Below are positions 5,850 to 64,000 of a DNA stretch of 64,000 nt, one piece after another. Under the pieces are notes generated by a model. That model was not told the origin of the DNA. It searched no databases and worked only from the letters and a program-made list of their open reading frames with translations. Position numbers and translations under genes: made by a program. The DNA lies in NCBI RefSeq assembly GCF_963676685.1, contig NC_092349.1:86056001-86120000 (forward strand). The letters are read 5' to 3'. The stretch comes from Mytilus edulis. Its lineage: Eukaryota. The stretch's first letter is position 1; every line of letters begins with the position of its first letter.

Positions 5850-7584
5850 GGCTTTGAACTACTACTTTCAGTAACTGTCAGTACTCTTATTGAACTACTA
5901 CTTTCAGTAACTGTCAGTACTCTTATTGAACTACTACTTTCAGTAACTGTCAGTACTCTTATTGAACTACTACTTTCAGTAACTGTCAGTACTCTTATTG
6001 AACTTCTACTTTCAGTAGCTGTCAGTACTCTTATTGAACTTCTACTTTCAGTAACTGTCAGTACTCTTATTTTTGGTTGGCTTTGAACTTCTACTTTCAG
6101 TAACTGTCAGTACTCTTATTTTGGTTGGCTTTGAACTACTACTTTCAGTAACTGTCAGTACTCTTATTTTGGTGCTTTGAACTACTAGTTTCAGTAACTG
6201 TCAGTACTCTTATTTTGGTTGGCTTTGAACTACTACTTTCAGTAACTGTCAGTACTCTTATTTTGGTGCTTTGAACTACTAGTTTCAGTAACTGTCAGTA
6301 CTCTTATTTTGGTGCTTTGAACTACTAGTTTCAGTAACTGTCAGCAGGGCCGTAACTAGGGTTCGAATTCAGGGGAGGCAGGGGTTTGAGGGCCGCCGAT
6401 TGAGCCCCCTTTGATTTTTTTTTCTCTCAGTCATTGGCTAAACATTACCCGTTTCCCTTCGATTTCCTTACTTTAAGAAACACCAGTATTGCTTGAACCT
6501 GGAAGCAACTTTTATGCAAAAACAAGCTGAGATTGCTGTTCGGGGTGAGCCAAAGCTAGTTCCGTCTTGAAAGCTGTACTTTGACCTATAATTGTTAACA
6601 TTAGATACATTGTGATCGTGGATTTTTTTCTCAAATGATATGGCTAAAATTACCCGTTTTCCTTCGATTTCCTTACTTTAAGAAAGATCAGTTTTGGCTT
6701 GCTGGATCCTTGGAGCAATTTTCATTCAAACAAATATTATCTGTATTTTCTGTATTTAAAAATATTTTTTTTTAGAAACTGGTAAGTTCAAAAAACATAT
6801 AAAGCAAGATTATAAAATGCAAGATATTTTTTTTTATCGAGGATCTTGAATTTCAATATTGTTGAAAGCTGAACAGACATGTATATAACTACAACCAGGG
6901 ACTTTCTATGCTAGTCTAGTATATACTTAGTATAGAAAGACCCTGCTACAACAAATGGGAGTGTTTACCTACTAAGGCATTGACCGTAATGTTCTAGTAC
7001 GATCGGGAAACTTAAAAAAAACGATCCAACAGCCAGTAACGAATTTCCAATATCTTATAAGATTCACAACACAAAAGGAACTTCCTCTGCTTAAATAATT
7101 GAGCCCCAAATAAATGTGAAAAGTTAAGTTTTTATTCAAAATTATCGAAAGCAAAGTTTCATATGTGTTCTCATACGAATCTGACCCCCTCAATACTGAA
7201 AAACAGACGGCGGTCACCCTGAATGAAAAAAAATAAAACAAATACTGAAAAGGTTTACTTTCGATCGAAAATCCGAAAAATGACAGACATATCACATATC
7301 ATGATAACACTGTTAAAACTGTTAACTGGAATTGTTTATAATATAAATTCAAGTTCTTCGTGTACATATTGTCAATGTTTTATTTTTTTACTTCAAAAAA
7401 AATTGTGTGTAGAAAATTCAGGGGAGGCAGTTGCCTCCCCTGCCTCATAGGTAGTTACGGCCCTGGTCAGTACTCTTATTTTGGTTGGCTTTGAACTACT
7501 ACTTTCAGTAACTGTCAGTACTCTTATTTTGGTGCTTTGAACTACTAGTTTCAGTAACTGTCAGTACTCCTATTTTGGTGCTTT
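5850..7584. repeat. Minisatellite (39-bp unit grading into ~48-52-bp variants), split by the hAT insertion
   Basis: TTGAACTACTACTTTCAGTAACTGTCAGTACTCTTAT units at 5850-6344 and 7466-7584. Confidence 0.93.
6345..7465. mobile_element. Non-autonomous hAT-like (hAT5-type) DNA transposon
   Basis: 14-bp TIR CAGGGCCGTAACTA / TAGTTACGGCCCTG; 5-bp TSD GTCAG (6340-6344 and 7466-7470); splits a minisatellite. Confidence 0.88.
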
Positions 7585-16700: not shown

Positions 16701-16817
16701 AATTGTTATATAACTCTTATCAATATTTTTTTCCATTTGTTGCAGGATATGGAGTAGTGGTAGCATGACGAATCACAGCACAAGAATAAAAACAATCCTT
16801 CTGCTGACAAGATCACA

Positions 16818-18095
16818 ATGGTTAACCACTCATATGTGATTCCAGGCCACTACGAAAATTTCCTCCAAGATGACCAAGCTATCCAAACCTATATGGAAAA
16901 ATCAGTTGAGGATAGAAATGACCATTCCATACAAAATACTTTTCACCAAGAGGCCTACTATCTCTACTTTGTGGCTGTGCTTGGTATATTACTGAACCTT
17001 GTGGTGGTATTGTTTGTTTTTATACGACAAACATTGAGGAAAATGACAAGTGCCTTTTTAATACATGCATGCTTTTTGGATTGCCTGAAAGCAGCTTATT
17101 GCATTCCAATAGCAAACAATCTTGTAACGCAGAAGAAACCTGCCGACTGTGATTTCTTTGGAGCAACTTACGTATTAATTGTAACTGCCTCTGTGTTTAA
17201 CATGCTGGCCATGGTTTGTACAGAGGCATACACTTTTGGAGAAATAAATATCGGTGGGAATTCAAGAGGATCATTGTGTTGTATTCTTTTTGGAATAATA
17301 CTTGTTTACATAGCTAGTACAGTGTTGCATCTTGGTCCAACGTTGATCGGTGGATATTTTGATTTTCATCCTGAAATTGGCAGCTGCTCATTTGTCTTGG
17401 GCAAAGAGACAGGATATGTGGCTCATGCAATGTGGATTGCAATATCCACCCTAGCAATAGTAGGAATAATCCACTTCATATGTAAGTTATATAAAGAAAT
17501 TCAAGTGAATCATACAAATCGTGTATCAATGCTTGTGAGGTCCTCTCTTACAATAACGGATGAAACACTGACTTCTTGTAATGTTCAAAATTTCATAAAT
17601 GATTCCAGCCATCGTGCAAAAATTTTCATTCTCAACACTATTGCCTTTGTGATTTGTTGGTACCCGCTATTTTTGTTACTATTAATAGATGTGCACTTCA
17701 AAGTATCTCCGAAAGTTTACCAATCATTCAGTTTCATCGCGTGGACACAAGGAAGTATTCAACCAATGATCTACATTCTGTTCGACAGACATATTCACTT
17801 ACTAGCAAAATATATCTATTGTGATCGTTACCGACAATACCGCTTGACAACAATTGCCAATCTGATGAACCAACAAATAACCGCTGCTGCCGCGGCAAAC
17901 AATGCACCAAGTTCCGTTCCGTGTTATGATATCGAGGACAATGAAATAGTATATGGTGTCTCAAACAACGAAAATCAAAGTTCTCATAGTACTTCTCCCA
18001 GTACAATGTTACAACTAAGCCATGAGTCTACACCTTTATCAAATATTCAAATAGAAGACCGAACATTGAACCAAGACATTGGACTACCATGTTAG
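16818..18095 (+). CDS. Orphan class A (rhodopsin-like) GPCR, SREB/GPR85/GPR173-like; uninterrupted CDS, 425 aa
   Basis: Seven hydrophobic segments; TM1 GILLN, TM2 FLIHACFLDCLKAAYCIP (compare SREB FLLDLCxxDxxRSAxCFP), Cys at the top of TM3 and in ECL2 (GSCSF), TM6 CWYP, TM7 WTQGSIQPMIY. The subfamily call is from remembered similarity only. Confidence 0.9.
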   Translation: MVNHSYVIPGHYENFLQDDQAIQTYMEKSVEDRNDHSIQNTFHQEAYYLYFVAVLGILLNLVVVLFVFIRQTLRKMTSAFLIHACFLDCLKAAYCIPIANNLVTQKKPADCDFFGATYVLIVTASVFNMLAMVCTEAYTFGEINIGGNSRGSLCCILFGIILVYIASTVLHLGPTLIGGYFDFHPEIGSCSFVLGKETGYVAHAMWIAISTLAIVGIIHFICKLYKEIQVNHTNRVSMLVRSSLTITDETLTSCNVQNFINDSSHRAKIFILNTIAFVICWYPLFLLLLIDVHFKVSPKVYQSFSFIAWTQGSIQPMIYILFDRHIHLLAKYIYCDRYRQYRLTTIANLMNQQITAAAAANNAPSSVPCYDIEDNEIVYGVSNNENQSSHSTSPSTMLQLSHESTPLSNIQIEDRTLNQDIGLPC

Positions 18096-29908: not shown

Positions 29909-32096
29909 AGTTTAAACAGTATTTATTAATGAAAAATGTCAAGACAAATATTACAATGTTACATAAAGTTCAAATATGGGATTCGGAAACAAGTTTGGAA
30001 AAACTTTTATAAATCCGTCTCCCTAAAAAAAAACAAAAAAAAATCTATTTAACATACAATATTACGTGCCAACAGTATATTCATTTTATGGTAGCATATG
30101 ATACATTGAATAAATAAACACACACACACACGCAAAAAAAAAAATAATAATAAAAAAAAATACAAAAAATACAAAACAAATAAAATAAAGGAAAACAATA
30201 AAAAGTGAGGGAAAAAAAACAAAAAAAACAAAAAAAAACAAACAACAAAAACAGTCAACTCTTATTTACTTTTCTAGACAGTCACTGGAACCAACACACA
30301 CGTTCGACCACAATCAATTACAACGGACAATCCACTCGATTTTACATCATATTTAAAAAAAAAAGTATAAATATATAATATATATATACATATACTAGAT
30401 TAACTTTCAAAACGTTTTGTTTTATTTATGTATTCAGAAACTTTATGAAATATTTGCATATTGTCCTCGTCAGCTTTTAGACCATCCCCATATAAGATAA
30501 TCTTAAGATTAAAACAAGAGATCGTCCCGATAGTATCCCTTCGAATTTCATTATATTTTGGACATTTGAAGAAATAATGAGAAGTAGTTTCTACTTTACC
30601 ACAGGAACACAGTGCGTTCTCGATTAGATTTTTTTAAAATAGATGGTCCCTTAGAACACTACTCTGGAGCCTTATTCTTGCTAAGCATATCTGTTCTCTT
30701 CTACAGCCGAAGTGAAAATACAATGGTATTTTATTAATATTTTGAGAGAGATAAGTCTTAAAACCTGATTTTGATTGATTTAGACGGATGTCGTCAGGAA
30801 TATTGTTCCAAAGGTTTACTACGGCTGGTAGAAATGACTTTTGATAATAGCTTGTTCTGCATAATACAGTTTGTAAATTTGAAGACCCCCTGGTCCTGTG
30901 GTCGTGTAGATCTAGTCTCTGATTTGGGACTAACACAGAAAGATAATCAGGACAATCTCCGTGAAACATTTGATGAAATTTTAATAACTTATGTTTGTCA
31001 CGTCGAGACTGGAGAGTTTCCCAACCGGTTTCATCGTACAGCAACTGTCTCGATGTTATCTTAGTACCACCTGTAACGATTCTTGCTGCTTCTAGTTGTA
31101 AGTTTTCCAGAGATGTTTTCAAATAATTAGGTATATTATCCCAGACAATGTCCCCATATTCTAAGACTGGGCGAATGAAAGATAAATAAATAGTTTCTAA
31201 ATGTTTCCTTTTAAGTTTAAACTTTAACTTCCGGAATAATGCTAATCTAGGAATAGCCTTATCAATAATCATTTTTACATGATTATTCCAGCTTCCATCT
31301 TCATTTATAATAACCCCTAAATGCTTATGCGACTCAACTTCTTTTATGATATTAGTATCCATATACACTGGCGGGTGGTGGGGTTTTTGATGCCTTTTTG
31401 AAATGGTCATTATTTCTGTTTTGTTTGGATTGAAATTGACAAGCCATTGCTTTGACCAATTATGTATTTTCTCAATATCTTTATTTAACTTTTCTGCCGC
31501 TTCATATTCGTTATCAACCACTATATAAATTGAGGTGTCATCAGCAAAAAGTTTTATATCACATTCGATGTCATTAACTATGTCATTTATATAAATGAGA
31601 AATAAAATAGGACCCAAGATAGACCCTTGGGGTACCCCAGCTGAGACATGTTCGTTATTGGACATTTCTCCACCAATGACAACCTGTTGCCTTCTTGAGT
31701 TTAAATAGCTTTCAAACCAAAGTAACAAGTTACCATTAATTCCTATTTTTCTAAGCTTATATAGTAAGCCTTTATGCCAAACTCGGTCGGAAGCTCGACT
31801 AATGTCGCAGAAGATTACCCTGACCTCTTTCCCTTCATCTAATGCTTTACCAAAATCATTAATAATACATAGTAGTTGGTTTACTGTCGAATCACCAGGG
31901 ATGAAACCAGACTGGAATTTTGTTAATAAAGAATTTGTAATAATAAAGTTAAAAAGGTATTTAAAAATGCATCTCTCCATTGTCTTACCAATGTTAGACA
32001 GCAAAGATATAGGTCTATAATTAAGTAAAAATCTGGGCCACCTTTGTTCTTATAAACAGGTATAACATTTGCTAGTTTCCACACATCTGGAACATA
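29909..32096 (-). mobile_element. 5'-truncated non-LTR retrotransposon (LINE, CR1/L2-group-like) with RT remnant, 3' UTR and 11-bp TSD
   Basis: ORF 32004-30634 carries RT motifs QSGF, DISRASDRVWH, GVPQGSILGPILFLIYIND, LFADD and HKHLGV. The frame continues past a premature TAA into CSCG..ETTSHYFFKC (CCHC) and stops at 30400. TTTGTATGTTT is duplicated at 29898-29908 and 32097-32107. Confidence 0.93.
30400..32096 (-). pseudogene. Disrupted LINE ORF2 (reverse transcriptase plus C-terminal zinc knuckle)
   Basis: No endonuclease domain (5' truncation), probable frameshift near 32020-32040, premature stop at 30634-30636, and Phe-to-Ser change in the DxxxAFD motif. Confidence 0.88.
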
Positions 32097-46600: not shown

Positions 46601-48000
46601 AAACCATCAGTCTAAATTATACAAAAAACACGAGAAACGGGAAACCCTTATGAACCATATCAACAAACGACAACCACTGACCAAACGAAAACCACTGACC
46701 AACAGATCCTAATTTGTTTTGTTATAGATAAGATCGTTAGTTTTTCGTACGAATTGTTACTAATTTTTCATTTTTGGGCTTTTATAGCCGACTAGACGGT
46801 GTTTTTTTCTTTTCCCTGTTTGAGGATGTTCTGTTGTCTATGCATGCTTGCTTATATATATCCACTCCATTTGAACTCTGACTGATTGTTGTCTCTTTTG
46901 TAATAATACCCCAATTACTTATTTTTAGATAGTTTCAATAATTTTTCTTAAAAATGACACTTAAAAAAAGAGAGAATAAGAGCTTTTTATATATTAAGGA
47001 ATGCGTTTTAGTTAAATTTCGCTAAATATATGTAATTTGTTGTATTTGATTAGAAATGATTGAATTCATTTCCATGATACGCGGGTTATGTTCTTCACAT
47101 ATATTTAATGATGGTATAATACTAAGGATTGTACTTGCTATTCATATGATGAAGACATAATCTTTCAATCAGTTTAATTGAGGTCTGGAGCTGGCATGTC
47201 AGTAACTGCTAGTAGTCCTTTGTTTATTTATGTATCATAGTCATTTTGTTTAGTTTCTTTTGTTACCTATTTTGACATTGGACTCGGACTTCTTTTGAAC
47301 TGAGTGTTACGGTGCGTAATTGCTGGGTGTTTGTTTTTTCTACATTGGCTGTTCTTTGGTCGTGTTGTTGTCTCTTTGACACATTCTCCATTTCCAGTCT
47401 CAATTTTATTTTCATCATAGCCTTGATTGAAATTCTATATTTGCGCAAGACGCGTGCTTCGTCTACAAAAGACTCATAAGTCAATACATTCTAAAATAAA
47501 TCATAAAAAAAAATAATAATAAACAAAATATTTCATTTAAAAATAATTTTATAAGCCTGACTTAGGTCACGTACAGAAATATAGATGTTAGTTGAACAAA
47601 TATTGATTGTTTTAAACTTCATGTTTAATCTCTGACACGAAGATTTATAGTTTTAATAATATGTTTTAGCTAGCAATTGCAATATGTCTATAAACATGAT
47701 AAAGTCAAGTAAAACCTATACTGAAAAAACGCAGAACTATTCCTTTTCATGAAAGTATTTTTATTTTTAAATTTATAAATTTTCTCTATTTTTGTTTATA
47801 CTGATGGTAAACATCATTATGCTAATTCATCCTCGATCTTATTGAGATAATTCTACAATGGTCTACGCATGACGAACAAGGTCAAGTAAAAATACATTTT
47901 TTATCTGTGTACTAAACAATGTTTTGAGGTGAATATTTTTATGACTATTCGTAGTACTAGTGTATATGTATTATATATCCTTTTATGATAATATAATAAA

Positions 48001-48181
48001 ATGAGTATCATGTTAAGACGAAGTTTTCTATCTGGATTGAACAAATGGATATATATAAACAGCGCATACTGCTCTTCTGCATGGAATTTCACGGGAATCC
48101 AGTTGCAGTCAAAGAACTATGGTCATAATGTTCGGAAGCTTGGAACTGCTGCTGCTGCAACTTCAGACTTTGTCAAACCGG
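48001..48181 (+). CDS. hcp: HCP exon 1: putative mitochondrial targeting presequence (60 aa)
   Basis: [60 protein letters not shown] is R/K/S/L-rich with no acidic residue until D56. The phase-1 donor G|GTAGGT fits the exon 2 acceptor TTTCAG|AC (gives Asp then Met). Confidence 0.78.
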
Positions 48182-51100: not shown

Positions 51101-54100
51101 TAACTACATTTATAAACTTGTTTTAAGGAAATCAATGCTAGCACTGCATGCAATAATCCTATATCTATCAGTCATCAAATTGCCAAATATGAGAGTACAA
51201 GGATAAAGGCTGTGGATTTTCTATAAAAATCTTGATTTATTTGCCACAAAGTCCTCTTTTTCTATTAAATGAAATGGAACAGTAAAAAATAATGCTTTGC
51301 ATCAAGTTTCCCCTTGGAATATGTACAAAATGGCCTATCTCTATTATTCATTATATCTGTAGTTTTGATACAATTGAAGTTTGAAAAGTTCGTACAAAAA
51401 TGGCTACAGAAGGGTACATAAACCTTAAAAATTCTTTGTTTCAACACATGCCCAATTGTACCACGATTTCGCGGGTTTCATCTAGTGATATACAAATAAA
51501 CAAGTCATGTTATAAAACCAAAATATCTTAACACGGTTGCTTTACCCGAATATATGTTTAACATCGTTTCCCTTTACTAATTATATTGATTTATTGTATT
51601 TGTACTATTATTTCAGACATGTTTTGTTTCCAGTGCGAGCAGACCAAGAGCCGAAAAGGCTGTGTAACCGTAGGAGTATGCGGTAAAACGTCACAGGTAT
51701 CTGCACTACAAGATCTACTAATGTATGCTGTGCAGGGGTTGTCCATGTATGCCAATAGAGCTATTAAATCAGGCATCACTATGTCTAAAGAATGTGACCT
51801 ATTTATACAGCAAGCTATGTTTAGGTACATACAATATTCTTAAAGAAGATAGACATAAAGCATGGACAAAGAGAGGAATTTTTTCGATTAAATACAATTT
51901 GGGATAGATGAATTTGTTCTAAACATCGGATATGGGAATATACACAATAGAAAAGGATGACCATAATGAAAAAGAATAGATAAAAATGATATAAAATTAA
52001 AAAATAGATCAATTGAGTGATAAAATTTAAAGATTAGAAAAATAATTGTCCAACGAATCTTAATAGAGAAAATGGCCTAACATTATAGAATGCAAAAATG
52101 AAGACCTACCACCAAGACCCTCTTAACTGACACAAAGTCTCCTATGTCTATATAAATACTATCTATTTCTGCTATAAAGGCAAACGTGAATATAACTAGT
52201 CTAATTTAGAATTAACGCCCGTATAAAGCAGAAATAAAAAGTATATGTCTCATAAGTTCTGCATAGCGTAAGGTTACGACAGGGCATATATATTTGGTTT
52301 AAGGAGTGTAAGTTGTAATTGAGTCTGAGATCAATTAAGGCACCACGCAAATCCACACAATCTTTTGAAATGATAGCCATCGCGGTTAAGAGTCACTGTC
52401 TAAAGAACGAAATCATAGATGCTAGTATTTCAAAGTCTTTATATGGGTGTCTGCCTCGAGGTGCATACTTATTGTTCAGAATATTTAAACATAGGCAATG
52501 CATTTGTCTGTACTGACTTTTGCATTCTTTGTTTTTAAGCACCGAACATAAAGATAGGAATATGCAATATTTTCGTCGATAAAGCAATACTTGACACTAT
52601 GGGGATACACATTAAAATAATATCATTATTTATATATTAAACTACTTTATTGCCTGCTTGAGACTACTATTTGCTCTTACTTTACAGCACATTGACAAAT
52701 GTGAACTTTGACCAGGATCGCTTTCCGGAATATATCAAAACTGCAATCAAACATCGCGATGCCATCAAGAAAATTATGGAGGAAAAATCATCGCAAACTC
52801 TTGACGAAAAACTCAAGCATGGTCCTGCTAGCTGGGTTCCAGAATCATATGATTTGACATATTTAGAAGACGAAGGTAAATTACTAAGGCATGCTACGTA
52901 CTGATACTAATTTAAGTCTTGTCAACGATTTACAATGGAACTAAGTTTTTGTATTTGCGGAGGTTAAGCACAGGCACTTTGTCTCTGAAAAACAATAATC
53001 CATATATAACCATTTATTAAAGTATATCAATCTAATTAAAAACCGATATCTCATCGCTCCCGTTTTCTGATATGTCGGGACGCGACACATCAGAAAACGG
53101 GAGCGATCAGAGATCGGTTTGACATATCAGAAAACGGGAACGATGAGAGATCGGTTTTTAATTAGATTGAAGGTATATAGGATTTTTTTCTGAGAAAAGT
53201 GCCTGTGGTTTGTGATTGAGATTGGTTCGGTACCACTACCAACTGACTTTGTTATAGAAAATCATGTAAATTTGAGACGTGTTCACTTATCGAAATAAAA
53301 TATGTATTACATGGTAATCAAGAAAAAGACTTGAGTATAAAAACAACGCGAAACACCGTGTGATCTTTGTTGTGACATGCTTAGCTCGAGTAAGTGAGGT
53401 CTTAAGCTGTAATCCAACCTTGGTCAAATCAGTTGTATTATCAATGCTGCTCCATCGAAAACTCGGTAACTACGATTATAAATAAGAACAAATATTGTTT
53501 GGCTTCTTGAGTCATTAGCCAAAGGATTGAAGGGTGATATCCCACCTGTGGCCTATTGCAATTTAAGATACGTGCATTTTTAAAAGTTCGACTCAGTGAG
53601 TTAGTACAAATGTACCACACGAGAAACTCGGCAGCTTTCCCTACTTAAAAACAAATAATAATACAGAGAAGTTTTATTCGTTTGATATTAAAATGCCATC
53701 TTCAAGAATAATTATGCACGTATTTACGGCTTGAAATAGAACAGTCATCATTTATTCATGATCACCAGTTGACCAAGTTAAATCTTTAAAAACGTGCTGT
53801 CAATCTGTGGTCAATCGGTAGACGGTTGACTTCTAAGTATCATTTTCCTACTATAAAATTAAGAATGGAAATGGGGAATGTGTAAAAGAGACAACAACCC
53901 GACCAAAGAGCAGAAATCAGCCGAAGGTCACGAATGGGCCTTCAACACAGCAAGAAAAAACCCCACCTGCAGGCGGGCTTCAGCTTTTTATGTCTATGAC
54001 AAAAGACCTCGAAATTTTCTTTATAAAAATCTTATGTAGGCGAAACGCGTGTCTTAGTTGATATAAACAGTACTTATTTTTTTTAAAAATCTTACATTAA

Positions 54101-57100
54101 AGTAGAACAATTTTTCATAGCACGTGCCTTCATTAACAAATACTATATAACTAATCTGGGATCACTTTATTTTTGAAACTTGATATGCATAATCTCTATA
54201 AAAATGAGTGTTGATCATGCATGAATGAATTATAACCGACTTATCTTTACAACTTTGTTTACTTTGTAAATGTAGGTCTAAAAGTTGGTGTATTAGAAAA
54301 CCAGAGTATTTATGGACCAGACGTGAATGGTGTTCGTTACATGACCATATATGGCATTAAAGGATTATCTGCATACGCCTGCCATGCTAATGCGCTTGGA
54401 GAAGAAGACCCTGAGGTTTCCACTTCCTTATACGAGGTATATTGTTGAATAACTCATACTCATCACATTCCAATGGTTAATTTCCCTCGTGGATAAGTCA
54501 GAAGACCAAATAAGAAAAAAAAGTGTTTTTTTTTTGTTATCCTGATAACTCTATAAATGAAAATCTCTCATAAGTCAGTGTGGCTACATGTTAACTTAGA
54601 TTTAAATCTTGTTTGTATGTTTGAGTACACAAATGAAATATTCTGTCCGTCTTTCTGTCTAATATGTTATGAAATTCCCCGAAGTCCTTACGTATACATC
54701 CATTCGTTGTCAAACATTTTTGGTAAGCGAATTTTACATAAAAAAGGTTTTTCTTTATTCGGCATTGATGAAAACGGTCACACCTGTACATTTTACATGA
54801 ACATGGAGCTTATGTACTATAGTATGACTATCTATTACTCGACTAATTAAATAGAACAAACAAAAAAGAAAACGGAGTAATTATAAAGCTATGTTTTATT
54901 ATTTCTTTTTTCAGCTCACGTTTTCTTTAAAAATGATGATGTCTGCTGATTTTTACAATTCAGGTTTTGGACTTTTTGACTAGTGGAACAGAAGAAGAGC
55001 GTCATGATCTGACTACGAATCTAAAACTTGCTCTAAAAGTAGGGGAAATAAACCTCCGAGTGATGGAGCTGTTAGATAAAGGTCACCGGAAGCAGCTTGG
55101 TATACCATCTCCCTCAACAGTTAACAGAGCACCTGTCCAAGGAAAGGTACACTCTTAAAGTATTTTATTAGTTACCAATGAGACAGGAGTTTGAGCAAGT
55201 TTACAAGAGCACAAACAATTTGTTTTAACGAAAATAATACTACCAATTTCGCGTGTCCGAAGAGATTTTCTGAATTTAACTTCCTTTTTATTTCAAGTTA
55301 CGAGCAAAAAAAAACAACAACATGTAAGCATTTTTAACCCCTTTTTGACCATTTTTGGTAGCTTGGTACCTTGATACTAATTCCGCTATATATGGGCATG
55401 TATTGTCCTATGTCGTTACTTTTGTTGACCAGTATACGTTGACTTAAGTTATAAATGTCGTGTTCTTACCTATAGTAACGTGCTGCGTATAGATTATCGG
55501 GTTTTCAACACATTGATATCGTAAAATATCAGCCGCGAGCCACAATGTGAACCTTTTTGGCGAGTAAGCGTAGCGAACGATCTAAAAAGTTTCACATTGT
55601 GTCGAGCGGCTGATATTTTACGATATCTATACGTAGAAAACCCGATTATCTGTTTATCGTCTTTTTTCCTCTCCCTAAGACAGTTTTACGCTTGACGAAA
55701 GCAAGCTTGATAACGTGTGACGTCTCTGATAACTTCTCCTCTCACATTGTGACGTCGCTGATAATGCCTGGTCTCGTTTTGAAGTTTTGATATGAGAATT
55801 ACTGAGCGACAGAGCAGGGTGATATAGGCGTAGGGAAGGACAATAATATATATGATATTACATTCATTCATTTCTTTATTTCTTCTAGATCACGAGATTC
55901 AATGAACAACTATATGTAATCAGATTAAATTACAAAAGTTTGCAAATCATAATAACACAATATAATATTACAATATGTACAATAAGTACAGTTAATATGT
56001 AATTGTTTATAACTAAAGAATTCGAACATGTCGTCAAGAAAATTGCTCTCATTAACGACGGTTCATGCACTGGCACATATACGAATCGTCGTTCTCGCTA
56101 GTCTGTTATACATGCAGCGACACAGTGTGCAACGTGCATGTGGCAAAGCTTCCAAAAACTGTCGGTGTCGATATTGATTGTTGTTACGTGATTGCCAAAA
56201 ACAATGCTTGTCGTATGAATCAAGTTCCACAAATAAATGCAATGGAAGTTTTTCAATTATGAACTCCCACCACACATCTCTGATTGTATGAGTTCCACAA
56301 CAGCTATAACATGGATGTACATGCATCTAAAACTGACTGTTACATGGCTCGCGCGTGCCTCCTGAGATTGATACAATTCACCTTTTTTCTTTACTTTTGC
56401 TTCTTTCACTCAGGTAGCAAATTGTTAGATTCCACTACTAAAAAACTATTATTAGCAAATATAATGTCATCATTAAAGCCTACATTTCATGGTTTCGCGT
56501 GTTGCTTTTAAATTTACTTCTTAAACAAATGGATTGACAATAAAGGACTTACCATTAATTTTTTAAATAAAAGCAAGGGAAAAGGCAAATTAAATACTTT
56601 CAGATAAACTGGCTTGACAAATAACAACTACAGTTTGTTATTTTACTCCCATTTTTCCCTTTATGATTCAATAAGAAATAATGCATATTTTAAGTTCTTG
56701 CTCGTAATATAACACACCAAGGGTGATATGATTGCTCAAATGAAAGGACCAACCGTTCGAAGGTTTCCTTTGTGCAATCCTAGAGGTGGATCCATTTTTT
56801 ATATCCGATATTACACTGTATGTATGAGCCTAAGCTATGTACATGCTTGTATATTTAAATGTGCATACAAGAAATAACGTTTACATCTGTATTGTAGTGT
56901 ATACTGGTTTCAGGACATGACCTGATGGATCTTTATGCTATTCTGAAACATACTGAAAAAGAAGGAATAAACGTCTACACTCACGGAGAGATGTTACCAG
57001 CACACAGCTATCCCATTTTGAGAGAGTTCAAGGTACATACCCATATACACAAATGACACATATTAACGAATAAAGATCTGAGAAAACTATGTTTTACCTA

Positions 57101-60100
57101 TTATATATATTGTTTAAGGTTTAATGAGTGGAGCTGGAACTGCCTTCTTATCCTACACTTGCAGTTATCCATGTTTCGGTGGGAGTCATGGTTTATGTGG
57201 TTTATTGACTATCGTGATCTAATGTGTTTGATTCCTTCCCGTCGGCATTCAATTTTGTTCTAAAACCAAAATGTCACCTTTAACAAGGCAGAATGATAAT
57301 GCTTTTTTTAAACAAACAAATATCGAAATAGAAATATTTTCTTAATTGACCAATACTAACATAACATACATCTTGGACTATCTGAAGATACATATTGTAT
57401 TATCTGATTAAGAAATTTCGTTATTCAAATTTTGTCTATGGATTCAAAAATGAAGTAAACTTCATAAACTTTATTCAGGGACCAGCTAAGTCCCACCTCG
57501 GTCGCGGGATATTCTCTCTGAGTTGAAGACTCATTGGTGGCCTTCGGCTGTTGTCTGCTATTTGGTCGGGTTGTTGTCTCTTTTACATATGCCCCGTTTT
57601 CATTCTCAATTTTATCGTAAAAACTTAGATATGACACTAAACTTCGACTTTGAACTTTTTCTGAAGTACATTTCATCTTCTCGTAGAATCTGGTTGGTCA
57701 GTTTGGTAGTGCATGGCAGAATCAGAAGATTGAATTTGGAACTTTTCCAGGACCAGTTGTCATAACAACAAATTGTGTTATCGAGCCTTTGAAGTCTTAC
57801 AGAGATAGACTGTATACTTTGAACGAGACAGGAATCCATGGAGTTAAACATATCAATTTGGAAAATAAAGAGGAAATTTCTCAATTGATAAACGTAAGCT
57901 TAAGGTAGATAGGGTGTCTTCCTCCATCTTGGATTTGGAAATACCAGAAAACAAGGTCTAGATCTTTAATAGAATGTGCAAATTTTTAGAGAAGTAGATA
58001 ATTCATGTGTAAGAAATTCCACTTCTACATAGAAAATGACATGTTTTATCATATTTATGATTGTATTTTACAAAAAACAGAAATTTTTTGTTCGAACAAT
58101 TTTTTTCCAACTTTGCCACATAAGGGGATGCAACTCAAATGCAAGGGCAGATAATGCAGATTATGGTATTTTTACAATAGAATGTGTTAGGAATTTCTCT
58201 ATTTTATTATGTAACAAGAAAACAGGTCCGGTGACCCCATTTTTTCTTTTTCTTAACTGAAAGCATACTATTAAAGCTATCTTCTCATATGTTATCTCAA
58301 AATTCTATGGTGTAGTTTACGCTTTATTGCAGAAAATTGGGGTTTCCATGCATAATCTATACAAAATTTGACAATTTTGAACACCGTGTAGCATGAATAA
58401 AAGCCCGGTGACCCATTCTTTTTATTACTTTTTTTTAAAAAGCATAATATAAACTTCATTTTGGCAAATTATTAAAAAATTCTATGGATTATAATTTAGA
58501 CACCCCATCTACCTTAACACGTATATATTTTCACTACTGTGGCAAGTATTGTCTAGAAAGGTTCCCAAGAGTGTGCAATTGAGATTTCATCATAAGATAC
58601 CTTAATGTATTTTGCCGTATCATAAAATAAGCTTTGTATTTGAAAAACGAAGAACAACGTACAGACAATCAAAATTTCACTATTGCGTTACATAATTTAT
58701 TTTTGGCAAAGAATGATTAAAAAAAAAAAATGCATCTGGTTAAATATAGTACACTCATCACAGATCTAGTTTGATAATTTGACGCGTGTTTTGTCTTTAA
58801 AAGAGTCATCAGTGACGCTAAAATAAAAAAGGAGTAGAAAAGGGCTCAACGAAGAAACAGTTTGCTCCATACACAGACAAAATTGAATTTCACTCGAGTC
58901 AATTTCACGTATATTTAATTTCAATGCGAATTTCACATCAAACGGGCTTATTCGTAAAAATCGCGTGATTATTATATTAAAATTGATACCAATTTCAATT
59001 TTGAAAAACGACACGTTTTGTAAAATAACTTGCATCAGATATCTCGTGACCTGACCTTGAACCTTACCTCACGTTTGAGAGATTATAACATGAAATGTAG
59101 AATGCACCTCAGTCCAGAAGAACTTCAAAAGAACAAGCATAAGACTGATTTTGTGTGAGAGAGTTTTAATACGACACAAGGGTTTACAAACTGAACGATT
59201 TCATTAATACTGAATTTTTAATGTAATATTTACAGCATGCTAGTTATGTAGTTATGGTCATTGTGGTCATTGATAAAGTAGAAACCATTTATAATATATC
59301 TAAATAACTTTATCATCCATTGAATGCGTGACACGTCCCTGAAGAAAATATTGCAAACAATTAGTTCAATTTTTGACCAAGACTACATTTACCTTTTAAA
59401 AAACCTGGTTCAACTCTCTGATACATGAATAGCGTTATATAGTTATAGGAATAGTGCAACTTATCAAAGCAACCTTCATAGGATAAGCTACTTATCAAAA
59501 TATATCTGTTTAATAATTTGTATGATCGGCTTGGCTTAGACGGATACATAATATTGTAAGGTATTCTACAGTTTGTTTTTCAGAACAAACATTTCTCATG
59601 AAATGAAAATGAAAGAAATTAAACACAGAATATGGAAATAAATAAATCCCTAAGGCTCGCACCCCCTTTTAAAAGAGATGAATACGAATGATATAATTTG
59701 AAAGTGTAAGTGCGGTGTTTGTAGAAGAGATCTACAATGAAATACATTTTGGAACACATTTTTGAAAAAGAAAATATAAAGAAATTAAACACAGTATATT
59801 GTAATATATAGTAGCTTCACATCCTTTTGTTTCAACAACGTTTCAACAAAGGTATGATTATATCATGAATTTTATAAGCGTAAGAGTGAAATGGGAAGGA
59901 GGAACCCTACAATGAAATATAAGGATAATACTTCTTCATTTCCAGCATGCAAAATCACTTCCTGGATTCGACGACAAGACAATTCAGAAGTTTGATAAAA
60001 ATACATTTACTGTCGGCTTTGGAAGAGAGATTATCTTAGATAATGCAGAAAAAGTGAGTTGTGTACAGCTTGGATTGTTTTATTTTTACTTATATTTTTA

Positions 60101-63100
60101 CTCTATTTCATTTGGTGGACTGTAGCAAATAGTCTTACATCAGTATTGTCAAGATTTGTCTTTTACATAATACTTATAGTCATACTAAATAAATATGTTC
60201 TGCGGAATGCCGTATAAAAACACATCCACGTCCGTTCATAATTTTAACCATTTGGCTCCCTAAAAATACCAGGCTTATAATCCAGTTCGCAAGATATACG
60301 TTTCATTGATTTCAATTAAAATCTGATGTTTGTGTTTGGAAATTTCCGTGCTATGCAGGTTGATCTGCAACTCTTCGTTAGTTTATTGAATTACTTTCTT
60401 TCTGTCCCTATCCAACATATTATCTTTTTCACATGGAATGTCACATTTCTTACCTTCAATATGGTCACCTCGTTTTGAAAAATAATCCTGTTTGAAAAAT
60501 TGTTTAATTTGATCTTGTCCTGTAATATATGTTGTTTAGTTAAATAAATGCAATGTATTTTATGCATGGTTGTTGAGACTCTCGACTCGCATATTTGTTT
60601 TGTTACTTCTTCCTTAAACATAATCTTAATCCTTAAATTATGTTTTGAATTACAACATTGCTTATATCATGCTTTTGGCTTCTATTACACAACGATTATC
60701 ATTTCATCGTGTTTCACATTTTTTAAATCCTAAATTCACGTGACTGATTGTACAGTAATCTCTAATACACATGACTATGTCAGGCTTTTGTTACTTTCTT
60801 ACTTATTTAAACTTGTACTTGTACCACTCTTTCTATACATTCATCGGGGTTATGGTATATCACGCTGAAACTTCTGTAGGATTTCTTTTTGAGCCGACTT
60901 CGTCAAAATTGTCCGTCTACCACGATTGGTATCGATAAACATGTTTTATTATGTTATAACTCAATCGAGCGATGATACACTAGTGATAACATGAAGAAAA
61001 GTACATGTAGTTTGTGTAATCCTGATTTTGTTTTTATTCTGCATGTGTAAATATTAGTGTTGTCAAATCGTAAACTTTTGCCTAACCGGTTACAGGGGCG
61101 TAGCTAGAATAAAACGATGTGGAAGCAACTATCGCCGAGCGGAGCGAGGCGAACAAATTTTGGGACCCTTTTATGCAGAAATTTTTTTTCGGTTTTCGGT
61201 TATCATGGTCATAGGACGCCCGGTTAAAAGTGGAGCTACATGTAGATAAAAATTTATGAACGTTAAACTATTAATAAATCTTCTGAATAAACAAGACATA
61301 TTTGTGATACAGAATTTACTCAAAATTGTCCAAAATCTGCTCTTCGGGTCTGGGCAGAAACAAACTTCTCTATTACTTTGTCAATATTCACACTGAAATC
61401 CCGATGAATATGCAGTAATACTATGTATGTTCTGTCGGTGTTCATTGTTGATCGTACATTTGTTTTCAATAAAATACGTAGTACTGTGACTAATAAATCT
61501 CCAGCATGGCATGGTAGCACTCGCGAGATGTTATAAACCAGCTTACGTGTTCGGCATCGAGAGACCTCCCAATTGAATTCGTCAAAATTACATGCCAGAT
61601 CAGTTTCAAATGTCTCAGACAATATTGAGATTTGTTCGTTTGAAATATAACCTACAACACGATGAAGCAGATTCAGCGCAAAAAAAGAGATTTTCTGATA
61701 ATACTTGACGCGACTCCACTCTCCAAATCCCTTATCATATGGTCAACGAACTCAAAAATAATGAGACTTTCCAATACTGTTTTGGCGTTGTTGCAGGGTG
61801 ATTGGCTCCGGTAGTCTGTCGACCACATCGCCTCGGCATATTTTTAACGATATCGAAGGGATCTGATAATTCTAATGCCATTGGTACATCTCATTCAAAA
61901 CTGATGAACTGTACACTGTTAAATGTGCTTCAAACCTACATGTCTTAGACTGAGTATTACAAATTCAAATATTGTAAAAGATACAAGTTACCTTCCGATG
62001 TTGGCATAATCTCAAAAAAAAATAATTTTGAAACCAAATGTCGTTATTTAATGATATTTCATCAATTAAAAAAGTGACAACATAGGTGTTTCCTTTAACA
62101 TTCAATTTTTATTTTGCCATTTCTTTCTTGCATGCCGAATCAATGTGCACGCAACTGCGTGTTAGCGTATAGGGAGCTATGATATTTTTCTGCATGACTC
62201 GAACATCTTCATCAACACTTTTAACTAGGTTGTCAAACTAATATCCGGGATAAACAGAACAGACACCAACAGTCTCCGAACGTTAGATAATACATCACGC
62301 TGTCCGATTCCGATTGACCAACTCGTCTCTCTCTCTTCTGTTTTTGTTTTTTTTTTGTTTTTTTTTGTGTGTGAAAACGACGTGGATGCACGTGCTGTCG
62401 TGCCTCCGGGTAGCTACGCCCCTGGGTTACTTGTATACTCGTTCGACCGATTAACCGGTTAACCAGCATTTTAAGTTAATGTTTGAAGGACTTATCAATA
62501 GTATCCTACACATCGATATAAGAAGATGTGATATGAGTGTCAATGTGACTATATTCCATCCAACTCATACATTTACGTTTTTATAATACGATGAATTGAA
62601 GTTTGGCTTTTGGTTTTATAAGGCTTGTCTGTGAAGATTCCTGTCGAAGTTTGACTTTTAATAATCAAATACACGGTATCAACTTAATTTCCGGTACTTC
62701 AAGAGAATACAGCTCGAAAACCAGCACGGTTGCTATGGACTGTCTTTGCACCAATGGATTTGTCGTTTATATTTGAATCGCAATTCGAATTTACAAAAAA
62801 ATCTATTGACCAACGAATTAGAAAATCATTATAAAGTAAAAATATATGCCGTGTTTTTTTAATGATTTCCCCTACATATCCTTTGTACTTCTGGCGTAGC
62901 ATGCTGTTAGTTTCAACAGCTTGTATCTGAAAAACGGAAACGGTTACCCCCTTTTTTATTTTATATTCTGATGTATTTTTACAAGTAGAATCCACATGTA
63001 AAAATTTTTAAAAATCTGTTGAGAGTTATATTACGTACACTTCGCCTTAATCCTGATATTCGTACCATCATGTATACATAGATTACATTCACGTTGGTTT

Positions 63101-64000
63101 GCTATTTACAGTTTTTGAGTTAGCATTTAGTTTAAAGTATGACAAAGACTTGCACAACGGAGTTTGCATATTTAGATGTAGGTCTACACAATATAAGATT
63201 AAAAATGAAATAATGAAGTAAATCATGAATTGAATCGTACTACTGATTAAAAATTACTGTTAAAAAACAGGAACCTAATACTAAATATTAAAGAAGTAAA
63301 GCTTCTACAGTCGTCCTGTTGTACTACGTCAGGAATATAACAGTTGTTTTCCATTCGTTTGATGTGTTTGAGCATTTGATTTTGCCTTTTGATTCGGGAC
63401 TTTCCATTTTGAACTTTCCTTTGTGTTCGGTATTTTTTTTATTTTATTTTTTCACATGTTAAGAATTGAAAAAAATATACTGCAAGTTGTGATAACTTGT
63501 GTCCGATTTTTTTGTTAATTATCTCTCTCTCTCTCTGCATACAGCCTACTCTATTCTACTCTGTAATAAGAACGAAATGAACAACATATAAAAAGTAACA
63601 AAATCATATTAGTATATGGTGACTTGTAAACTAATAGTTGGTATAGACTTATATTAATCTGGTAATATTTTAGGTTCTTCAAGCAGTAGCCGATGGAGAT
63701 TTGACGAGAATATTTGTCATTGGTGGATGTGACGGTTCGGAACACAAACGTAACTATTTCAAAACATTGGCACACTCATTGCCCCCACAAACGCTTATAC
63801 TTACTATGGGTTGCGCTAAATATAGAATCAACGATAAAGACTATGGAACTCTGGGAAATACTGGAATCCCCCGACTTCTTGACCTTGGACAGTGTAATGA
63901 CAGTTATGGTGCAATAATGGTAGCTCAGGCACTGGCGTCGGCACTCAATACTGACATTAACAGTTTGCCTCTTTCTTTATCATTGTCGTGGTTTGAACAG
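48001..64000 (+). CDS. hcp: Hybrid cluster protein (HCP, prismane / hydroxylamine reductase), spliced gene with probable mitochondrial presequence; 3' end lies beyond the window
   Basis: Hand-spliced exons 48001-48181, 51617-51824, 52688-52875, 54276-54436, 54964-55146, 56898-57032, 57687-57893, 59946-60053 and 63674-64000+. All introns are GT-AG and phase-compatible, giving 566 stop-free codons. Motifs in the correct order: [101 protein letters not shown]. Confidence 0.97.
48403..48460. repeat. (CAAA)n microsatellite, probably the tail of a minus-strand retroposon fragment
   Basis: Perfect CAAA run; on the - strand AATAAA lies just upstream of (TTTG)n. Confidence 0.85.
50686..51424. mobile_element. 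Long-TIR TTAA-flanked MITE (Kolobok-like) in HCP intron 1
   Basis: Inverted arms of about 220 bp (50681-50906 and 51204-51429), highly similar, with TTAA at both ends; mirrored ORFs 50642+ and 51447- show the same symmetry. Confidence 0.88.
51617..51824 (+). CDS. hcp: HCP exon 2: [4Fe-4S]-binding Cx2Cx8Cx5C motif
   Basis: [46 protein letters not shown]...QAMF; boundaries tttcag| and |gtacat. Confidence 0.96.
52688..52875 (+). CDS. hcp: HCP exon 3
   Basis: (S)[28 protein letters not shown]...LEDE; boundaries ttacag| and |gtaaat. Confidence 0.95.
52969..53207. mobile_element. Second copy of the CACAGGCAC MITE with a nested palindromic element (53027-53170)
   Basis: Same termini as 43523-43611; internal inverted repeat TCAATCTAATTAAAAACCGAT...ATCGGTTTTTAATTAGATTGA. 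Confidence 0.8.
54276..54436 (+). CDS. hcp: HCP exon 4
   Basis: (G)[53 protein letters not shown]; boundaries tgtag| and |gtatat. Confidence 0.95.
54964..55146 (+). CDS. hcp: HCP exon 5
   Basis: [61 protein letters not shown]; boundaries ttcag| and |gtacac. Confidence 0.95.
55491..55651. repeat. ~160-bp palindromic element in HCP intron 5
   Basis: Arms AGATTATCGGGTTTTC..GATATCGTAAAATATCAGCCGC..CACAATGTGAA pair with their reverse complement around a GCGAGTAAGCGTAGCGAAC loop. Confidence 0.8.
56898..57032 (+). CDS. hcp: HCP exon 6 (His and Glu ligands of the hybrid cluster)
   Basis: [45 protein letters not shown]; boundaries tgtag| and |gtacat. Confidence 0.96.
57687..57893 (+). CDS. hcp: HCP exon 7
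   Basis: [69 protein letters not shown]; boundaries cgtag| and |gtaagc. Confidence 0.96.
57904..58513. mobile_element. TTAA-targeting MITE (Kolobok-like) in HCP intron 7
   Basis: TIR GGTAGATAGGGTGTCT / AGACACCCCATCTACC, flanked by TTAA on both sides. Confidence 0.85.
59946..60053 (+). CDS. hcp: HCP exon 8
   Basis: [36 protein letters not shown]; boundaries ttccag| and |gtgagt. Confidence 0.93.
61093..62424 (-). mobile_element. Deleted hAT5-type DNA transposon with transposase remnant, in HCP intron 8
   Basis: TIR CAGGGGCGTAGCTA / TAGCTACGCCCCTG; 5-bp TSD GGTTA. The - strand remnant ...[32 protein letters not shown] (61320-61622) resembles the hAT C-terminal dimerisation region of ZMYM1/THAP12-like transposases. 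Confidence 0.88.
63674..64000 (+). CDS. hcp: HCP exon 9 (runs to the window edge)
   Basis: [109 protein letters not shown]; acceptor ttttag|. Confidence 0.96.

Follow-up and report, generated by a model that had tools for sequence, protein, structure and literature searches.

Is a gene for hybrid cluster protein (HCP), an enzyme described from bacteria, archaea and unicellular eukaryotes (PMC1484493, PMC10210160, PMC10502027; 2006 to 2023), part of the blue mussel's own genome and, if so, where did it come from and what might it do? The question is raised by a 64,000-nucleotide window of the Mytilus edulis assembly GCF_963676685.1 (contig NC_092349.1, forward-strand positions 86,056,001 to 86,120,000), in which a reading of the letters alone had noticed HCP ligand motifs between 51617 and the window end. 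Here we find that the locus is an intact, intron-containing nuclear mussel gene for HCP. Positions are given in window numbering, and the articles cited by PMC number, apart from PMC2175520, are cited from excerpts.

The gene was completed by fetching the stretches beside the window. It spans 48001 to 64174 on the + strand, 174 bases beyond the window end, and comprises nine coding exons separated by eight introns, all with GT-AG ends. The spliced frame of 1872 nucleotides encodes database protein P0122 (623 residues). Exon 1 (48001..48181) holds 60 codons of a 61-residue leader, matches P0122 residues 1-60 at 100% and closes on a phase-1 GT donor (GTAGGT). Its 5' untranslated part covers at least 47921..48000, as judged from a contig of run X4 that follows 47921-48180 (six other letters, nine gaps) and runs on into exon 2. 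Exon 2 (51617..51824), with an internal ATG at 51619, encodes the cubane [4Fe-4S] motif C64-x2-C67-x8-C76-x5-C82; a contig of run X1 links it to exon 3 (52688..52875), which matches P0122. Exon 4 (54276..54436) has AG/GT ends, an open frame and a P0122 match, and exon 5 (54964..55146) likewise matches P0122. Alignment to structure chains places the hybrid-cluster ligands H314 and E338 in exon 6 (56898..57032) and C382 in exon 7 (57687..57893). Exon 8 (59946..60053) is joined to exon 9 in four of four runs (60053>63674, GT..AG ends). Exon 9 (63674..64174, of which 63674..64000 lies in the window) encodes the persulfide C476, then C504, C531, E565 and K567, and its TAA stop ends at 64174. The codon for K567 occupies 64001-64003, directly outside the window, where the original prediction had expected the lysine.

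Among the joints listed for the four runs, spliced contigs therefore cover exons 1-2 (X4), 2-3 (X1) and 8-9 (all runs). Weighing against this support, the kind of the runs that show splicing was guessed as RNA or is unrecorded, and the contigs carry no expression level. The gene lies on a 93.9-Mb contig of an AT-rich, 1.37-Gb genome, and a genome-wide search for the family returned this gene and one broken tandem copy, with no further copies. A database isoform, P0130, has a C-terminal addition of 32 residues from a putative further exon at 65130-65225 (extended window numbering).

As an HCP the product scored far above the curated equivalog cut-offs of NCBIfam PRK05290 (664.7 bits, cut-off 367) and TIGR01703 (639.3 bits, cut-off 360.8). 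We aligned P0001, a protein 96% identical to P0122, with the PDB chains 7de4, 1gn9 and 1e2u. Besides the cubane cysteines, the hybrid-cluster residues H314 (SGHDL), E338 (THGEM), C382 (TTNC), C476 (GGCDG), C504 (GCAKY), C531 (GQCND) and E565 (WFEQ) all fell in register, with no large deletion, and the earlier list of ligands was thereby borne out. An AlphaFold model built on a 136-row alignment (mean confidence score, pLDDT, 89.4) was superposed on Desulfovibrio HCP, a check proposed at the outset. It matched 1gn9 with Z 52.3 at 1.4 A over 538 residues and the second class I chain, 1e2u, with Z 50.6 at 1.6 A; the match to E. coli 7de4 (Z 50.9, 1.6 A over 542 residues) means that the predicted structure resembles HCP from Desulfovibrio and from E. 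coli to much the same degree. Sequence and model thus identify the product as a hybrid cluster protein with every cluster ligand and a predicted HCP fold. Ni,Fe carbon monoxide dehydrogenase was rejected as an identity (TIGR01702 45 bits against a cut-off of 478; Z about 23, identity below 21%).

The cysteine motif had been placed at the N-terminus and its spacing read as class I, of the strict-anaerobe type. The motif itself is correct, but it begins at residue 64, since the exon at 48001-48181 adds 61 residues upstream, and it lies close to the start of the mature protein. Class I is upheld as a sequence class: the motif has no insertion, there is no central deletion, and class I chains align along P0001 residues 59-614. 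The class II insertion (Cx2Cx11Cx6C), found as x11-x6 in E. coli and six other named proteobacteria, is missing from the mussel x8-x5 spacing. Nor does the protein show the class III deletion, which takes about 100 residues out of the N-terminal half; the class III chain 7e0l aligns only to model residues 199-623, as against 59-623 for classes I and II. As a clue to a Desulfovibrio-like source, however, the spacing failed. Among 497 sequences with a BLAST hit, x2-x8-x5 occurred in 354, x11-x6 in 11 and other spacings in 34, while 98 had no motif; x8-x5 is also found in Chlamydomonas proteins. Because x8-x5 is the commonest arrangement, because class II has itself been called a subgroup within class I (PMC10210160), and because a Desulfovibrio-type placement was rejected in the tree tests below, class I spacing is best read from these sequences as a common default state and not as a marker of a strict-anaerobe donor.

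Comparison with the solved bacterial proteins gave a mixed likeness. The mussel protein shares its cysteine spacing, ligands and fold with the class I HCPs of Desulfovibrio desulfuricans and D. vulgaris (1gn9, 1e2u), but is only 39% identical to them, and they have no Hcr, no leader and no introns. The best solved match by sequence is instead class II E. coli Hcp (7de4; 485.7 bits against 411 and 406), with 42-43% identity and all ligands. Unlike E. coli Hcp, the mussel protein has no x11-x6 insertion and no Hcr partner was found: NF007964 gave no match in the genome (two candidates scored), although an intron-split gene could escape such a search.

We then asked whether the gene is maintained. 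In the coding part of exon 9 the four runs revealed 25 variant sites, at 24 of which the residue is unchanged. With changes counted singly, there were 23 synonymous changes over 114 sites and two non-synonymous changes over 384 sites, a ratio of about 0.03 that is a proxy for dN/dS (non-synonymous over synonymous divergence) from one exon and not a formal dN/dS between congeners. Some caution is due here, since 13 of the 25 variant letters match the broken tandem copy and may be copy-derived or ancestral; among the remaining 12, 11 are silent. Across the animal clade described below, all 12 key residues are intact in 29 of 30 proteins, and the thirtieth, which is 5'-partial, retains the last eight; the hybrid-cluster ligands are intact in all 30. 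Because the exon 9 variants are almost all silent and the key residues are so widely kept, the sequences support an intact gene under strong constraint and purifying selection, as had been proposed.

The tandem copy lies about 26 kb downstream, at contig positions of about 86145960-86153690 (89959-97690 in extended window numbering). It is 93% identical to the HCP gene across a 4.4-kb block, introns included, with 37 silent and 24 amino-acid-changing differences. No counterpart of exons 1-2 was found in it, its exon 3 is shortened, its exon 5 contains a stop and its exon 9 a frameshift. Truncated database proteins suggest that similar copies exist in other Mytilus species.

The distribution of the protein was assessed by three protein searches, each of which scored about 8000 candidates and listed the best 120, together with cluster look-ups. 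The closest cluster at 90% identity (17 members, 15 listed) contains Mytilus californianus, M. galloprovincialis, M. coruscus and M. edulis, and the closest cluster in the ESM Atlas is 79% eukaryotic. The animals named among the matches listed were Mytilus, Mya, Mactra, Dreissena, Mercenaria, Sinanodonta, Solemya, Lingula, Helobdella, Owenia, Lamellibrachia and Ridgeia, which by sequence amounts to orthologs in bivalves, a brachiopod and annelids. HCPs were also matched in the unicellular holozoans Salpingoeca punica and Amoebidium parasiticum, to which a fused form with a Creolimax-type identifier (P0099) may be added. No protein named from a sponge, cnidarian, ecdysozoan, deuterostome, oyster, gastropod or cephalopod appeared in the three best-120 lists; as many matches are unnamed, this is to be read as not found and not as absent. 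It nonetheless counts against vertical descent, which, with no HCP named from any further animal phylum, would require many losses. In the Helobdella gene model P0019, an 11-residue insertion sits exactly at mussel intron 2 (51824/52688), hinting at an intron position common to annelid and bivalve.

A phylogeny with prokaryotic and eukaryotic HCPs had also been called for, and trees were built at two scales. From 392 rows that passed a coverage filter, which took class III out of all trees, 30 near-duplicates were dropped and the remaining 362 were analysed with FastTree. A 28-row animal clade (0.999) was recovered inside a 175-row, largely eukaryotic clade (0.979), separate from a 13-row proteobacterial clade. 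Ninety hand-picked rows, many of the eukaryote-clade ones unnamed, were analysed with IQ-TREE under LG+G4 (animals 100/100, eukaryotes 99/97, eukaryotes plus proteobacteria 92/95) and in a C20 quick tree (SH-aLRT branch support 100, 95 and 92, respectively). In both 90-row trees the proteobacterial clade that holds E. coli Hcp is sister to the eukaryote clade, whereas in FastTree the proteobacteria are not its sole sister. The trees thus place animal HCPs as one clade inside a eukaryote-wide HCP clade. Within it, the LG+G4 tree groups Mya with Dreissena and Mactra with Mercenaria, and Solemya branches first, an order that broadly agrees with what we take to be the species relationships, Sinanodonta excepted. 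Two unnamed, transcript-derived proteins, P0025 and P0026, are sister to all named lophotrochozoan HCPs (100/100) and may stem from further animal phyla or from the nearest protist lineage.

Alternative positions for the animal clade were compared by grafting it onto a fixed backbone. Of 84 placements, 54 were scored, and 16 chosen ones were taken to an approximately unbiased (AU) test of 5000 replicates, a number below that recommended by the program. The fixed backbone is biased towards rejection, and the AU set left out four placements on mixed-eukaryote branches lying 4-13 log-likelihood units (lnL) from the best. All seven prokaryotic positions were rejected, at 127-319 lnL worse. A graft on E. 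coli cost 261 lnL and one on E. coli plus Photobacterium 171 lnL, in line with the earlier view that no enterobacterium was the donor, and the mussel protein was not nested in the class II clade in FastTree, in either 90-row tree or in the graft test. Beside the Desulfovibrio-type lineage, represented by the outgroup-side proxies L103 (Desulfosarcina) and L104 (Parabacteroides) and not by Desulfovibrio proteins, the animal clade was 319 lnL worse, among the worst positions tested.

Within the eukaryotes the test was more permissive. Green algae (p-AU 0.0096) and five other eukaryotic positions were rejected, while Amoebidium (p-AU 0.97), the choanoflagellate clade (0.093) and a clade of fusion proteins (0.066) were not. 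The algal HCPs, including Chlamydomonas reinhardtii HCP1-4, resemble the mussel protein in their x2-x8-x5 spacing, N-terminal leader and membership of the eukaryote clade (46% identity for P0229), but a position of the animal clade beside green algae is rejected on this backbone. In the fusions from oomycetes, chytrids and Creolimax, a CysJ-like diflavin reductase precedes HCP (P0037, P0090, P0094, P0099 and P0114; P0099 bears a Creolimax-type identifier, and we presume the name from its prefix). They share the eukaryote clade with the mussel protein and differ in carrying their own flavodoxin/FAD module; the mussel protein stands alone and would need a separate donor. That these fusions form one clade suggests transfer between eukaryotes.

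The original prediction had offered either an old horizontal transfer or retention from unicellular ancestors. Since all tested prokaryotic placements were rejected, the gene appears to have reached animals through eukaryotes, and the trees indicate an eukaryote-derived HCP that was present before the split of bivalves, brachiopods and annelids. A direct transfer from a prokaryote is accordingly very improbable. Inheritance from unicellular holozoans, with many losses, has an even chance of being correct, and transfer from a protist to an animal follows closely. The two are about evenly placed because holozoan monophyly was not recovered with support: the animals adjoin Amoebidium in the best tree at below 80%, and in no tree do animals, the choanoflagellate clade and Amoebidium form a single supported clade, a result that speaks against simple inheritance.

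The leader exon, which the original prediction overlooked, offers the chief hint to the enzyme's site of action. The first 40 residues of P0122 contain no Asp or Glu, whereas none of the 522 40-mers in the mature part is acid-free. Residues 1-51 have pLDDT values under 50, so that the leader is predicted to be disordered, and it has no long hydrophobic core: the Kyte-Doolittle mean over 11 residues peaks at 0.87. A leader of at least 35 residues is found in 25 of 30 animal-clade proteins, 24 of these being 55-72 residues long. As a group these leaders are rich in Arg and Ser and poor in acids: their first 40 residues contain 11.9% Arg and 2.9% Asp plus Glu, where the mature part has 3.9% and 11.8%. 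Outside Mytilus they are 6-21% identical to the mussel leader, while the mature part is 57-76% identical. A basic, acid-poor, disordered and non-conserved sequence fits a mitochondrial presequence, and we consider it very probable from composition and by analogy that the 61-residue leader directs mitochondrial import and is cleaved off. The Mytilus leader is not the best specimen, with only three Arg and a hydrophobic moment of 0.68 that is matched by 12% of mature 30-mers; both points weigh against import. A nuclear-encoded eukaryotic precedent exists in Acanthamoeba castellanii, whose HCP is mitochondrial and raised in hypoxia, with the same NO-removing or nitrogen role proposed. Acanthamoeba differs from the mussel in being a protist with hydrogenase and PFOR, and its sequence was not identified in our trees (PMC13632651). 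Among the Chlamydomonas HCPs, three are predicted to be chloroplast proteins and one mitochondrial (PMC8003979).

What might such a protein do in a mussel? We propose a mitochondrially imported HCP that would reduce nitric oxide (NO) to nitrous oxide (N2O) at low oxygen. After import and removal of the leader, the mitochondrial Fe-S machinery would provide both the cubane and the hybrid cluster. Electrons would then be fed via the cubane to the hybrid cluster by a low-potential carrier of a general kind, in the simplest case mitochondrial ferredoxin; ferredoxin is suggested because no Hcr was found in the genome and there is no fused reductase. The hybrid cluster would, rather more probably than otherwise, couple two NO into N2O as in bacterial HCP. 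A matrix sink of this kind could cap the hypoxic NO that inhibits cytochrome c oxidase while oxygen-dependent NO removal stalls. Taken from sequence and analogy, the whole chain may equally hold or fail. In bacterial HCP, electrons enter at the cubane and pass to the hybrid cluster; the enzyme is described as a high-affinity NO reductase producing N2O, with the reduction of hydroxylamine and peroxide regarded as side activities, and class I HCPs may receive their electrons from a general carrier (PMC10210160). In hypoxic M. edulis gills NO rises 1.6- to 2.4-fold, which has been linked to complex IV inhibition (PMC6411825), and a similar picture is given for Arctica (PMC7205294). On the other side, HCP function is still debated, and one archaeon makes HCP constitutively without an NO source (PMC10210160).

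Several other readings were weighed against NO removal in mitochondria. The same mitochondrial protein might serve as a general anaerobic electron sink or a peroxide and hydroxylamine detoxifier, re-oxidising ferredoxin in anoxia or handling re-oxygenation stress. Re-oxidation of ferredoxin has been suggested for Chlamydomonas HCP4 (PMC8003979), the HCP family is listed with antioxidant reductases in the Manila clam paper (PMC5499747), and hydroxylamine reductase and peroxidase activities have been measured in vitro; yet with millimolar Km and a turnover of 0.05-0.17 per second they were judged unphysiological (PMC10210160), and we regard this reading as unlikely. Distinctly unlikely is a role as an S-nitrosylase and hub of NO signalling, in which HCP would not destroy NO but hand nitrosyl groups on to enzymes of respiration or metabolism and help to set metabolic depression. 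It would suit the annotation of E. coli Hcp as a protein S-nitrosylase, the fact that the cluster has a dinitrosyl form (PMC10210160) and the standing of NO as a hypoxia signal in bivalves (PMC6411825, PMC7205294), but that role is called debated (PMC10210160).

The protein could also reduce NO outside mitochondria, in the cytosol or another compartment, shielding gut, gill or haemocytes from NO produced by microbes, from nitrite or by the animal's own immune response. Here the weakness of the Mytilus leader as a presequence (few Arg, unremarkable moment) counts in favour, as does the HCP transcript in a Riftia gill-plume library (PMC2175520). That a basic, acid-poor, disordered, fast-evolving leader with no long hydrophobic core is retained in three phyla argues the other way, as does the mitochondrial location in Acanthamoeba (PMC13632651), leaving an enzyme outside mitochondria with a decidedly small chance. 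Finally, HCP is mostly microbial, the adjoining tandem copy is broken, and an animal HCP transcript was earlier set aside as possible contamination (PMC2175520), all of which might point to contamination by a microbe, to a bacterial insertion of recent date or to a dead gene. Eight spliceosomal introns on a chromosome-scale contig, spliced contigs, silent variation in exon 9 and a tree in which the orthologs broadly track bivalve relationships refute each of these, and their probability is negligible.

The Riftia transcript itself merits a second look. It was reported from the plume in 2007 and set aside as possible bacterial contamination (PMC2175520). Since animal-clade HCPs are encoded by Riftia's tubeworm relatives Lamellibrachia and Ridgeia (P0380, P0382), the transcript was probably the worm's own. 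Our literature search on animal HCPs returned only passing mentions, in Riftia and in the Manila clam, where the excerpted genome paper gives HCP as a family name only (PMC5499747); animal HCPs may also be treated in van Lis 2020, in Hagen 2022 or in the MitoTOL paper.

That such proteins exist is already known, in that NCBI and UniRef label them 'hydroxylamine reductase' or 'hcp'. Taken alone, ligand conservation and class I spacing are nothing unusual; what deserves attention is an ancient HCP of lophotrochozoans, probably mitochondrial, with a possible role in NO handling. What emerges here is an old, conserved and spliced HCP gene across three animal phyla, for an enzyme described as microbial. 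Many of these animals tolerate low oxygen or sulfide in their habitats. A microbial-type Fe-S-O enzyme would thus join the genes of animal anaerobic metabolism, as a candidate for oxygen-independent NO removal in mussels. In its widest form the proposal is that bivalves, brachiopods and annelids kept a mitochondrial NO reductase from unicellular ancestors, which would relieve NO inhibition of respiration in anoxia and make N2O in animal cells; drawn from sequence and analogy, this remains rather doubtful. N2O from such animals has been credited to gut denitrifiers and shell biofilms (PMC5640653). If the proposal is true, part of the N2O they emit would be the product of their own enzyme and not of bacteria. 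The gene also makes it testable whether animals themselves produce N2O.

Three further features were noted in the same window. A tandem repeat with a 30-base unit, at about 5860-6080, shows as 10-residue repeats in two open reading frames. A rhodopsin-family receptor is encoded by a single long open reading frame at 16764-18095 on the + strand (7tm_1, 46 bits), and a LINE-type reverse-transcriptase fragment occupies 30634-32049 on the - strand (RVT_1, 107 bits).

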